Shown in pieces: positions 53,736-58,213 of a stretch of 64,000 nucleotides of DNA. The translations under genes were made by a program, and so were the position numbers. The DNA is taken from assembly GCA_050330955.1 (NCBI GenBank), contig JBHJHJ010000003.1:2484-66483 (forward strand), given 5' to 3'. Source of the DNA: Elainellaceae cyanobacterium (GTDB lineage: Bacteria; Cyanobacteriota; Cyanobacteriia; CAKZMO01). The stretch's first letter is position 1. Every line of letters starts with the position of its first letter. Under the pieces are notes generated by a model, which ran no database searches, was not told where the DNA came from, and worked only from the letters and a program-made list of their open reading frames with translations.

Positions 53736-54191
53736 ATGCCCTCGGAAGCGCATCAAAATCATCTCTTAATTATCGAAGATAACAAAGGCCGCCGGGAGTT
53801 TATCCTCGACAGCCCTGTCTACTCGATTGGCCGAGACCCCAAGTGCGATATTCGCCTGGTTTCTCAGTTCGTTTCACGCCGTCATGCGACGCTTGTGCAG
53901 TTGCCCAACGAAGATGGCGGCCATTACTATCGCATTGTTGACGGTAACCTCAAGGGCAAGACAAGCGCCAATGGGTTGCTGATTAACGGACGCAAACTCC
54001 AAGCGCACGATTTAGAAGACAATGACAATATCGTCTTCGGCCCCCAAGTCTATGCCACCTACTACATGCTCAAGCGGGACGCCGTTGTTACCATCCCGCC
54101 TGTGGATAATGAATTCGATGATGTGACGCTGATCAGTCCAAACATGGTCGGTGATCCCGAAGACGATCAGGAAGACTCTGAGGATGAATAG
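53736..54191 (+). CDS. FHA domain-containing protein
   Basis: YSIGRDPKCDIRL..FVSRRHATL..NGLLINGRKL..NDNIVFG, followed by an acidic tail. Confidence 0.7.
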   Translation: MPSEAHQNHLLIIEDNKGRREFILDSPVYSIGRDPKCDIRLVSQFVSRRHATLVQLPNEDGGHYYRIVDGNLKGKTSANGLLINGRKLQAHDLEDNDNIVFGPQVYATYYMLKRDAVVTIPPVDNEFDDVTLISPNMVGDPEDDQEDSEDE

Positions 54192-55743: not shown

Positions 55744-56751
55744 ATGGATCTTTTCTCCACCCTCGTCGGACAGCCTCAGGCAACGGCCTTGCTTACTCAA
55801 GTCCTCTCCCGTGAGCGCATTGCGCCGGCCTATCTATTTGTGGGACCAGCCGGGATCGGGAAGCGGCTCGCAGCACGCCAGTTCGCTGCCGCGCTGCTGG
55901 CGCCTAAGCGGGGCTCATCTGCCTTAGAGGCGACCAAACCAGACGCAGCAAACCCAGAAGGCGACGCAGAAACAGCCGAGCTAAAGTTCTATCCCGACCT
56001 CCTCTGCGTCGAGCCCACCTATTTGCATAAAGGACAGCGGCTGACCGCTGCTGAAGCAGAATTGGCTGGCTTAAAGCGGCGATCGCCCCCGCTAATTCGC
56101 CTAGAGCAAGTGCGGGAAATCACCCGATTTTTGAGCCGTCCCCCGCTGCAAGCCCCCCGGTCGGTGGTGGTGCTCGACGGCGCGGAGGCCATGGCCGAAG
56201 CTGCTGCCAATGCCTTGCTTAAAACCTTAGAAGAGCCTGGGAACGCAACGCTGCTGCTGATCTCCCACAACCGGGATTTACTGCTGCCGACCTTGATCTC
56301 TCGCTGCCAGAGTATTCCATTTCAGCGGCTTAGTTATGAGGCAATGACAACCGTGCTGGCGCAGCTTGGGGAAGACGCGCTGCTGCAGCGTCCCGATTTA
56401 TTAGCCTTGGCCCAGGGCAGCCCAGGACAGGCGATCGCCGCGCTGCAGCAGTGGAATAATTTGCCGGAAGAGCTGAGATTGGCCTTGGCCCATTTACCCA
56501 CAGATTTGCGGCAGGCGTTGACCCTGGCGCGTCGCGTTACCACGGTGCTCGACGTTGAGGCCCAGCTCTGGGTAATAGACTACCTCCAGCATCAGGACTA
56601 TTCGGCTCACCCCGCTTCGGGTGAAGGTTGGGCTACGGCTCAGCGTCGCCTGAAGATTCTAGAGCAGGCTCGTCAGCAGCTTCAGCGCTATGTGCAGCCG
56701 AGGCTCGTGTGGGAAGTTGCGTTTATGTCCCTCGCAGAGGCCCTGCCGTAG
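55744..56751 (+). CDS. holB: DNA polymerase III delta-prime subunit
   Basis: GQPQA..L......R.APAYLFVGPAGIGK; conserved tmk-holB adjacency. Confidence 0.85.
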   Translation: MDLFSTLVGQPQATALLTQVLSRERIAPAYLFVGPAGIGKRLAARQFAAALLAPKRGSSALEATKPDAANPEGDAETAELKFYPDLLCVEPTYLHKGQRLTAAEAELAGLKRRSPPLIRLEQVREITRFLSRPPLQAPRSVVVLDGAEAMAEAAANALLKTLEEPGNATLLLISHNRDLLLPTLISRCQSIPFQRLSYEAMTTVLAQLGEDALLQRPDLLALAQGSPGQAIAALQQWNNLPEELRLALAHLPTDLRQALTLARRVTTVLDVEAQLWVIDYLQHQDYSAHPASGEGWATAQRRLKILEQARQQLQRYVQPRLVWEVAFMSLAEALP

Positions 56752-56776: not shown

Positions 56777-58213
56777 TCAGAAGCGATACGTCAGCGCTAG
56801 CGCCCAGTCGTCCTCGGACTGCGTCAAGCTGATCTGCTGAATGAATTCTCGAAAGTAGAACCGACGCTCTGTTTCTGAGAGATCAAGCCAGAACTGGGGA
56901 AGTGAAACCGTCTGCGTGATAGACAGTAAGCTAGCGGGGGGAAGCTGCCCGACTTTGGCCTGTAGGGCCGCGATCTCGGTCTGCAGCCGGTAAGCCCGGA
57001 GGGTGCTCGTCTGCTCATCTAGGATACCTTGGTCTTTGAGCGGACCGAGCTGCGCTAAGATATGCTGCTTCTCAGCAATCTGATGGGTTAAGTTCATCTT
57101 GATGGCCTCCACGGGGGGTGGGGCAGATTGGCCAACCGTGTGGGCCAACTCGCTACAAATCCGCGCGATGGTTCGCTCTAAGACCTCAGCATAGGGTAGG
57201 GACACGCAGCGATTCCCCTCGTTAGATTGGGGGCCATAGGGGCAGTGACTTGGTCGCAGATAGAGATAAGTTTTAATCCGCTGACGGCCTCGCTTGCAGG
57301 TGGTCTGGCCCACGGTCATCGGGGTCTGGCAACGACCGCAGACCACTAGCCCCGCCAGCGATCGCGGCGCGGTGCTAGTCCGGGGCCTGAACTGCCGATT
57401 ACGACGCATAACCCGGTCAATTTGCGCGGCTTCGTCCCTCGAAAGGATGGGGGCATGGGTATTGGGAATAACATCGCCATTGTGATAGGCCAAATCACCG
57501 CGATAAACGGGGCTAGAGAGCCAGCGATTGCCGGTCGACACTGAAATTGTTTTGCGGTGTACTTCAGCGAGGTGACGTACCGCTCCCCGCAAGGAGCCGT
57601 ACAGTAAGAAGTGGTCAAAAAAGGCCCTGACGACTGTAGCAGCGCTGCGATCGAGGCTGTAGCGGTCGGGGCCGCGCCTGTAGCCATAAGGGGCTTTTCC
57701 CGGAGGGGGCTGTCCCTGGATGCGGGTTTTGGCGTGTCCCTGCTGAATGCGCTGCCGCCGCTGCTGCTGCTCTATCGCTTGGGCAAGCTGCAGCCCTGAG
57801 GAGAGTGCCTCAGCATCTACTGGACTGCCTAAAGCGGGAGTATCTAGAGCGGGAGGATTTAGAGCGGAAGGATTTAGAGCGGGAGGATTTAGAGCGGAAC
57901 TGTCCAGAGCGGAACTGTCCAGAGCGGAATCTACAACGGCTTCTGCGGCAACCCGGACTGGAATATTAAGCTGAGAGAATTCTGCTAGGCGATCGCTCAC
58001 CGCCTGTAGAGATTCACCCAAATCAGCAAGCTGGTAGACCAGGACAACGTCTACCGCTTGGGGATTTTGGCGACAGTCTTGGACCATTTGCTGGAGCTGA
58101 TGGCGGTCCTGAATGTCCTGATAGACCCGGTCAGCCGACTGCCGCCACTGGTTGAGCGGATCAGTACTCGACTCAACGGCGGCATAGGGGCGGTAGTGGT
58201 AGGCAAAGATCAT
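56777..58213 (-). CDS. Large serine-recombinase family homolog with apparently degenerate catalytic N-domain and a pentapeptide-repeat insertion
   Basis: Recombinase domain plus zinc beta-ribbon (GLVVCGRCQTPMTV..CKRGRQ..YLYLRPSHCPYGP) and a C-terminal coiled coil. The N-terminal YAAVESSTD / LADLGE sits where resolvases have YARVSTxxQ / LDRLGR. Confidence 0.6.
   Translation of the reverse strand: MIFAYHYRPYAAVESSTDPLNQWRQSADRVYQDIQDRHQLQQMVQDCRQNPQAVDVVLVYQLADLGESLQAVSDRLAEFSQLNIPVRVAAEAVVDSALDSSALDSSALNPPALNPSALNPPALDTPALGSPVDAEALSSGLQLAQAIEQQQRRQRIQQGHAKTRIQGQPPPGKAPYGYRRGPDRYSLDRSAATVVRAFFDHFLLYGSLRGAVRHLAEVHRKTISVSTGNRWLSSPVYRGDLAYHNGDVIPNTHAPILSRDEAAQIDRVMRRNRQFRPRTSTAPRSLAGLVVCGRCQTPMTVGQTTCKRGRQRIKTYLYLRPSHCPYGPQSNEGNRCVSLPYAEVLERTIARICSELAHTVGQSAPPPVEAIKMNLTHQIAEKQHILAQLGPLKDQGILDEQTSTLRAYRLQTEIAALQAKVGQLPPASLLSITQTVSLPQFWLDLSETERRFYFREFIQQISLTQSEDDWALALTYRF
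57832..57935. repeat. About 7 copies of a 15-bp tandem repeat (AGCGGRA-N8) inside the recombinase-like CDS
   Basis: agcgggaggatttag / agcggaaggatttag / agcggaactgtccag ..., encoding (S)ALDSS / ALNPP / ALNPS pentapeptide repeats in frame. Confidence 0.65.

Follow-up and report, generated by a model that had tools for sequence, protein, structure and literature searches.

A catalytically degenerate homolog of XisF-type large serine recombinases in an Elainellaceae cyanobacterium and its relatives across cyanobacterial orders

A 64,000-nucleotide stretch of contig JBHJHJ010000003.1 from an Elainellaceae cyanobacterium (referred to throughout as the window) contains an open reading frame (ORF) encoding a homolog of the large serine recombinases (LSRs), which is the subject of this analysis. 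The ORF is real and encodes the complete LSR architecture, with an N-terminal resolvase-like domain, a long helix E equivalent, a recombinase domain (RD), a zinc ribbon, a helical hairpin and a C-terminal motif following one another along the protein (Table 1). The Pfam Recombinase model (PF07508) matched residues 191-272 at 33.1 bits relative to a cutoff of 21.1, the Resolvase model (PF00239) matched partially at residues 33-95 (27.0 bits, cutoff 23.3, profile positions 39-104 of 145), and Zn_ribbon_recom at residues 286-346 scored 24.1 bits, marginally under its cutoff of 25.3. An initial annotation of the locus, made from the DNA letters without database searches, had described the recombinase and zinc-ribbon domains as intact, which agrees with the PF07508 match and with four invariant cysteines, the zinc-ribbon model itself being marginal. 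The top NCBIfam model was XisF (NF041201) at 110.6 bits relative to a cutoff of 375 bits, PHROGs assigned the protein to the integrase group phrog_95 (3e-41), and the PADLOC defence models gave no match.

The AlphaFold2 (AF2) model of the window protein had a mean pLDDT of 86.5 and a pTM of 0.76 and featured strands beta1 to beta4 with helices between them, beta1 being residues 2-8, followed by a long helix at residues 136-165. Its top PDB neighbours in a Foldseek search were the SPbeta, A118/LI, PhiC31 and Bxb1 integrases with E values down to 1.8e-15, and the N-terminal domain separately matched the catalytic domains of Sin, gamma-delta and Tn3 at ranks 23-46. The helical hairpin aligned to the A118 coiled coil over residues 368-422.

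Table 1. Coordinates of the ORF, its domains and motifs, and associated repeats (aa, amino acids)
Feature	Position in window	Strand	Description
ORF, catalytically degenerate XisF-type LSR homolog	56777..58213	minus	478 aa, complete; Elainellaceae ortholog of the cyanobacterial family
N-terminal resolvase-like domain, aa 1-100	57914..58213	minus	Fold kept, catalytic residues lost
Degenerate nucleophile motif A4-Y5-H6-Y7-R8-P9	58187..58204	minus	Opposite canonical G-Y-A-R-V-S; family consensus A-Y-x-Y-[S/T]-D
L62-A-D-L-G-E67	58013..58030	minus	Opposite L-D-R-L-G-R (gamma-delta Asp67, Arg68, Arg71); family consensus L-E-E-L-G-D
Seven 15-bp units, aa 97-131, in disordered length-variable linker	57821..57925	minus	Array placed at 57829-57929 by TRF
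Long helix E equivalent, aa 136-165	57719..57808	minus	Holds the (near-)invariant Q-G-H-A-x-x-R
Recombinase domain (RD), aa 169-280	57374..57709	minus	Best-conserved part of the protein
Zinc-ribbon core, aa 281-340	57194..57373	minus	Invariant Cys292, 295, 324 and 336
Long helical hairpin, aa 341-436	56906..57193	minus	Equivalent of the LSR coiled-coil region
C-terminal motif PQFWLDLSExERRFYFREFI and final strands, aa 437-478	56780..56905	minus	Near invariant in the family; weaker form in XisF
Perfect 14-bp tandem duplication spanning the stop codon	56767..56794		Protein C-terminus unaltered

Catalytic positions, given in gamma-delta resolvase numbering, were compared in three alignments. The first set the family profile against PDB sequences and placed the family segment vllvrrleelGdsvqev opposite the gamma-delta resolvase segment VILVKKLDRLGRDTADM. 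The second (hhalign, probability 99.9) compared the family with six annotated serine integrases of phages, in which Y, R, V, S, D, S, R and R..R did not vary, and the third (MAFFT L-INS-i) included the nearest XisF-like proteins, whose N-termini paired with the family gap-free. The MAFFT alignment also included gamma-delta resolvase, residues 45-126 of which were corroborated by the profile alignment to PDB sequences. In the alignment with the XisF relatives Tyr7 of the window protein falls at Arg8 and Pro9 at the position of the Ser10 nucleophile. In all three alignments A63-D64-L-G-E67 replaces D67-R68-L-G-R71, with Arg68 exchanged for Asp64 and Arg71 for Glu67. Both arginines are therefore regarded as replaced, because LADLGE (residues 62-67) pairs with L-D-R-L-G-R in each alignment independently, as had been proposed from the sequence at the outset. 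The comparison with the phage integrases further indicated that the SG loop is deleted and that the canonical Asp (gamma-delta D36) is retained as D33, and the Arg45 equivalent, R37, is retained as R or H. The initial annotation had paired AAVESSTD with the canonical ARVSTxxQ, a register about five residues off, as Y-A-R-V-S lies opposite Y5-H6-Y7-R8-P9 in the XisF alignment with beta1 at residues 2-8; its observation that Ser and Arg are missing from the catalytic positions nevertheless stands, and the alignment to the resolvase family that it had proposed as a check found neither the Ser nucleophile nor the Arg triad conserved.

The same columns were tabulated for 307 non-redundant relatives. 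Tyr occupied the Arg8 column in 289 and Arg in 0 of the 307, the Ser10 column held Asp in 260 (85%) and Ser in 2, the Arg68 column held Glu in 268 and Asp in 24 (292 in all), and the Arg71 column was made up of 260 Asp, 21 Glu and 20 Asn (301 in all). The replacement residues are themselves well conserved in the family (Tyr7 94%, Ser/Thr8 88%, Asp9 85%, Glu64 87% and Asp67 85%). Several of them are lacking in the window protein, which has Arg8, Pro9 and Ala63, and the relatives P0002, P0003 and P0005 also vary. Two divergent, basal members, P0265 from Gloeomargarita and P0258, read W-D-R-L-G-D, with the Arg68 equivalent kept and Arg71 lost, and they possibly represent an intermediate on the way to a lost active site. 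The aligned residues show that the canonical active site has been lost in the window protein and in the relatives examined.

The boundaries of the family were drawn from two homology searches. A word-indexed search returned more than 2,400 homologs, of which the top 120 were all 421-495 residues long, and the named proteins among these 120 were all cyanobacterial and carried no annotation more specific than 'recombinase family protein' or 'Pin-like invertase'. An exhaustive hidden Markov model search of 1.84 billion cluster representatives placed full-length members at 340-653 bits and the next full-length proteins at 118 bits or less, with the window protein at 634 bits on the family profile. 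The window protein carries every family motif, including A-Y-x-Y, L-[EAD]-[ED]-L-G-[DEN], Q-G-H-A-x-x-R, P-P-P-G-K-A-P-Y-G-Y-R, the four cysteines and PQFW.DLSE.ERRFYFREF. The nearest outsiders keep YxRVS and DRxxR and align to the whole of the Pfam Resolvase profile at 104-110 bits. Scored with the XisF model, three outsiders reached 421-438 bits and two fell just below the cutoff (363 and 368 bits), relative to 138-147 bits for family members other than the window protein. The window protein is below the equivalog threshold and therefore is not a XisF equivalog by score. On profile scores and motifs, the window gene is assigned to a discrete cyanobacterial family that is sharply apart from the nearest active enzymes.

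Conservation within the family differed strongly between protein parts. Pairwise identity was 78% for the RD, 72% for the C-terminal motif, 64% for the zinc ribbon, 57% for the N-terminal domain, 55% for both helix E and the coiled coil, and 22% for the linker. Sixty-nine positions were invariant in 104 relatives from many orders, including the four zinc cysteines (C292, C295, C324 and C336), PPPG-x-x-PYGY-x-R and D-L-S-E-x-E-R-R-F-Y-F-R-E-F. These patterns show that the gene is under purifying selection and that the complete scaffold for DNA binding and oligomerisation is retained. The lost catalytic residues, together with an N-terminal domain that is unusually diverged in the window protein, could also be read as signs of a decaying, pseudogene-like remnant without function; given an intact ORF of 478 codons, the invariant residues, a fold predicted with high confidence and orthologs kept from Thermostichus to Nostocales, such decay is very unlikely and has hardly any chance of being correct.

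When one genome per GTDB species was scanned, at least 552 species genomes encoded a relative. Named hosts included Nostocales, Oscillatoriales/Microcoleaceae, Coleofasciculaceae, Chroococcidiopsidales, Pleurocapsales, Chroococcales (Snowella, Gloeothece and Rippkaea), Leptolyngbyales, Elainellales and Synechococcus PCC 7336, together with the early-branching Thermostichus/Synechococcus JA-3-3Ab (ABD00507.1) and Gloeomargarita. In a neighbour-joining tree of 60 orthologs the Nostocales formed one clade adjoining the Chroococcidiopsidales, Microcoleus, Leptolyngbyales and Pleurocapsales each formed a separate clade, and the window protein grouped with sequences from Elainellales-related metagenome-assembled genomes. 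A tblastn search of 50,697 phage records and 72,556 plasmids found no family member, the only matches being ordinary LSRs of 22-33% identity from about residue 159 onward, and no family member was found in IMG/VR. The tree follows taxonomy, and the family is inherited vertically across many cyanobacterial orders. One member, P0510, bears the label 'Candidatus Obscuribacterales bacterium', the name of a non-photosynthetic group related to the cyanobacteria; either this reflects mis-binning or it hints at a family older than the oxygenic cyanobacteria.

The genes around the ORF are of a housekeeping kind, as had been noted at the outset for holB, the PhzF-family gene and nfi, all of which were confirmed. 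The genes tmk and holB converge on the ORF, and upstream on its own strand lie the PhzF-family gene, nfi (endonuclease V) and a UDP-glucose-dehydrogenase-like gene with gaps of 12-58 bp. The GC content of the ORF is 0.58 and that of its neighbours 0.58-0.60, in line with the host-like composition described initially. No tRNA gene was found in the 64-kb window and no att-like inverted repeats were found around the gene, where local inverted repeats were at chance level; the earlier failure to see such repeats was thus borne out by a local search.

These observations bear on whether the gene could be an ordinary active LSR of a cryptic integrated element, with the substituted motifs being an alignment artefact. 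The full LSR architecture, the names 'recombinase family protein' or 'DNA invertase Pin-like' under which the proteins are annotated everywhere and the PHROG 95 'integrase' match at 3e-41 would all fit such an enzyme. They are set against non-catalytic residues at Arg8, Ser10, Arg68 and Arg71 in three alignments and also in the 307 relatives, surroundings with host-like GC and without flanking repeats, tRNA or mobile-element genes, a vertical gene tree, and a family that was not found on the phages, plasmids and viral contigs searched. This explanation is largely refuted and was given only a very slim chance, while the view in the initial annotation of a domesticated LSR derivative is supported, more strongly than it had been put and for a whole family, by the substitutions in 307 relatives, the sharp separation from the nearest active enzymes, the vertical tree and the searches of phages, plasmids and viral contigs.

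Among characterized proteins the nearest sequence relative is XisF, the recombinase that excises the fdxN element in Anabaena/Nostoc. XisF is encoded within an insertion resembling a mobile element, which it excises. XisF is of equal length and domain order, its N-terminal 'M-x-[IV]-[GA]-Y' pairs gap-free with the family and a C-terminal 'FW..L....R.f..fi.ri' is common to both. Unlike the window protein, XisF retains Y-x-R-V-S, the SG loop and D-R-x-x-R, and unlike XisF the window gene is chromosomal, vertically inherited and without flanking sites. The LSRs of phages and other elements (A118/LI 4KIS, SPbeta SprA 9DXH, PhiC31 9RAH and Bxb1 9IU9) are built of the same modules, namely RD, zinc ribbon with coiled coil, helix E and resolvase-like domain, but the window protein is only 13-17% identical to them and is without the catalytic Ser/Arg, att sites, a recombination directionality factor or a phage context. 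The small serine recombinases (gamma-delta/Tn3 resolvase, Sin and Hin) align in the N-terminal fold and in the beta3 'L-x-x-L-G' segment, whereas the window protein has an RD and a zinc-ribbon domain in place of their helix-turn-helix and has all catalytic residues substituted.

The closeness to XisF also allows for an accessory protein or antagonist that occupies the sites of active XisF-type recombinases or forms inactive heteromers with them and in this way controls developmental or element excision. The nearest relatives are indeed XisF equivalogs and the interaction surfaces of LSRs (helix E, coiled coil and C-terminal motif) are kept. The family is, however, present in many non-heterocystous lineages (Thermostichus, Gloeomargarita, Microcoleus and Chroococcales), its inheritance is far more uniform than that of mobile-element recombinases and its identity to XisF is low (110-147 bits), so that an antagonist of this type is considered quite unlikely.

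The protein is classified here as an exapted, catalytically degenerate offshoot of the XisF-type LSRs. The explanation favoured, with a probability of roughly 0.7, is that the window ORF is the Elainellaceae representative of an ancient cyanobacterial family, passed on vertically, that arose from a XisF-type LSR and lost its DNA-cleavage chemistry. The role of the protein would most likely be that of a non-catalytic site-specific DNA-binding or DNA-bridging protein, because the residues for cutting are lost while the domains that grip DNA are kept; binding and bridging were inferred from what the same domains do in LSR-DNA complexes of known structure (4KIS, 9DXH and others). The nucleophilic Ser, the three active-site Arg and the SG loop are replaced or deleted in the relatives examined, and the resolvase-like fold, helix E, the RD, the zinc ribbon with its four Cys, the coiled-coil hairpin and the near-invariant C-terminal motif are retained under purifying selection. 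In the mechanism proposed, dimerisation through the N-terminal domain and helix E would still occur, the RD and zinc ribbon would probably grip a specific site of about 40-50 bp as an LSR grips its att site, and the coiled coil may bridge sites. A protein of this kind would not cut DNA and would therefore act as a site-specific DNA-binding, architectural or regulatory protein.

Several observations weigh against this explanation. The N-terminal domain of the window protein is more diverged than that of the family (37% identity relative to a family mean of 57%). Across the family as a whole, conservation of this domain persists and an acidic cluster has been gained (consensus Asp9, Glu63, Glu64 and Asp67), and it may therefore have a new activity beyond that of a dimerisation scaffold. 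No entry from PCC 6803, PCC 7942 or PCC 7120 was present among the matches listed by cluster look-ups and three homolog searches, which is not evidence of absence, and a phylum-wide distribution should be read as presence in many orders rather than proven universality. A search for a cognate DNA site by k-mer enrichment in upstream, intergenic and downstream regions at 80 orthologous loci identified none, the enriched words being confined to the HIP1 palindrome GCGATCGC and heptamer repeats of Nostoc. The literature searched on inactive, domesticated or exapted recombinases, XisF homologs, catalytic-serine loss and cyanobacterial core genes contained no description of the family. The family is thus apparently undescribed so far, the database names seen all being generic.

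HIP1 also recurs in and around the gene, in the window between 55500 and 59500, for example at 56079, 57358, 58280 and 58871, and a link between this palindrome and the protein is without evidence.

The conserved N-terminal domain could alternatively be a new enzyme or sensor, in which Tyr5, Tyr7, [Ser/Thr]8 and Asp9 at the end of a strand would combine with the acidic Glu63-Glu64...Asp67 cluster, present in place of the arginines, into a site that accepts a metal, a ligand or a phosphoryl group and serves a non-canonical DNA transaction or the control of DNA binding. The 57% pairwise identity of the domain, far over the 22% of the linker, the high conservation of the replacement residues themselves and the confidently predicted AF2 fold would be expected of such a site. 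The window protein and its clade are without several of the acidic-site residues, which are therefore dispensable at least in that lineage, and no serine-recombinase-fold enzyme is known to work in this way. A new enzyme or sensor is viewed as unlikely.

A further regularity was present at the orthologous loci. A gene of about 120 amino acids from the VOC/glyoxalase superfamily (PF00903) lies directly upstream on the same strand at 48 of 74 orthologous loci, often at a distance of 0-8 nt (for example L008 5524-5883), and is the sole widely conserved neighbour among the 74, which suggests that it is an operon partner of the family. No VOC/glyoxalase homolog was found in the 64-kb window. A broader proposal, considered possible but less likely than not, is that in many lineages from Thermostichus to Nostocales the highly conserved RD and zinc ribbon of a dead, host-domesticated LSR recognise a phylum-conserved DNA element and its acidic N-terminal domain has taken on a new regulatory or enzymatic role, making it a previously unrecognised core chromosome-organising or gene-regulatory factor that is often paired with the small VOC/glyoxalase-fold protein.

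Conserved synteny was also tried as a clue to function and was rejected, as the tmk-holB/phzF-nfi order was common only to the two closest relatives (L001 and L002). Synteny limited to the closest relatives is consistent with a chromosomal gene of long standing whose neighbours have changed through rearrangement. In the region 730-2951 of Nodularia phage vB_NpeS-2AV2 (L083) an active Ser recombinase adjoins a gene for thymidylate kinase, and tmk lies two genes from the ORF in the window; this likeness is probably a coincidence because only the two closest relatives share the tmk/holB order. Upstream of tmk an FHA-domain protein with an acidic tail is encoded at 53736-54191, and the region from 54 to 55 kb has a lower GC content of 0.485.

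The window ORF contains an array of 15-bp units, described initially as perfect, of about seven copies and located between the domains. The array is real and well beyond chance and does comprise seven in-frame units, but it is imperfect, with Tandem Repeats Finder (TRF) reporting period 15, 6.7 copies and 87% matches at 57829-57929. In order, the units encode ALDSS, ALDSS, ALNPP, ALNPS, ALNPP, ALDTP and ALGSP, unit 1 being identical to unit 2 and unit 3 to unit 5. The ALDSS/ALNPP array is located inside the N-terminal domain, in the loop from the domain core to helix E, rather than between domains, and its pLDDT is below 50 in the AF2 model. The linker ranges from 0 to 67 residues in the family with a median of 24, and at 54 residues that of the window protein is the second longest of 307. 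The closest relatives (64-71% identity) are without the array.

Copy number was compared between the window and two Logan assemblies from other runs of the same strain, which were 99.95-99.98% identical to it over 4.3-5.2 kb and gap-free, and was the same in all three assemblies. The 90%-identity cluster of the window protein consists of one sequence, and an exact 24-mer flank scan of metagenome contigs gave no match and no copy-number variant. The initial annotation had taken the repeat for slippage-prone DNA of a contingency-type, length-variable locus and had suggested a comparison of copy number, which revealed no variation. For a hypervariable locus, in which protein length would vary within populations with functional effect, one may cite that the 15-bp array is real with some units identical, that the linker is the second longest of 307 and that a repeat has also arisen independently in the linker of P0084. 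The array is nevertheless imperfect, the same copy number was found in three assemblies, the 90% cluster holds a single sequence with sampling that is very thin, the closest relatives lack the array and the region is predicted to be disordered. The unit of 15 bp is a multiple of three and in frame and therefore allows no on/off phase switching. A contingency locus is not supported and is judged improbable, the sampling being thin for population-level variation. The repeat would instead be a lineage-specific in-frame expansion, not a switch, in a disordered linker that is tolerant of length change.

Other repeats were observed in the family. P0084 carries an independent and unrelated tandem repeat, SQVNSQVDSQINSLINSQ..., in the same linker, and P0088 and P0116 carry a pentapeptide-like repeat, PIAPDPIEPDPIAPNLIE, in the zinc-ribbon loop, such that the surface loops of the family repeatedly accept in-frame repeat expansions. 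The 14-bp duplication at the end of the window ORF consists of two copies of AAGCGATACGTCAG and is located within the 25-bp gap to the convergent holB. It is silent because the protein ends in ...LTYRF* either way, as TTC-TGA or as TTT-TAG.

Host recruitment of an element enzyme followed by vertical inheritance is the same concept as that described for the exapted mobile-element recombinases Xer and Hin in the accessible text of a 2022 review of mobile-element exaptation, which in that text treats active serine recombinases only (PMC8987985). The exapted recombinases known from that text retain catalysis (PMC8987985), whereas here the chemistry is lost and only the DNA-binding scaffold is kept. 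The family would thus be an unusual case of exaptation, with a serine recombinase recruited by the host and its chemistry lost.

The label 'recombinase family protein' in cyanobacteria would, for these genes, be misleading. The presence of a serine recombinase is taken as a sign of mobile DNA, and genomes are mined for such enzymes as tools for genome editing; pipelines for mobile elements or for LSR mining would collect members of this family as false positives. For engineering, the family could supply natural DNA binders on an LSR scaffold that do not cut. The chromosome biology of cyanobacteria, including polyploidy, compaction and segregation, is poorly understood, and the family points to an unstudied and widely conserved factor that may bind DNA in these organisms.

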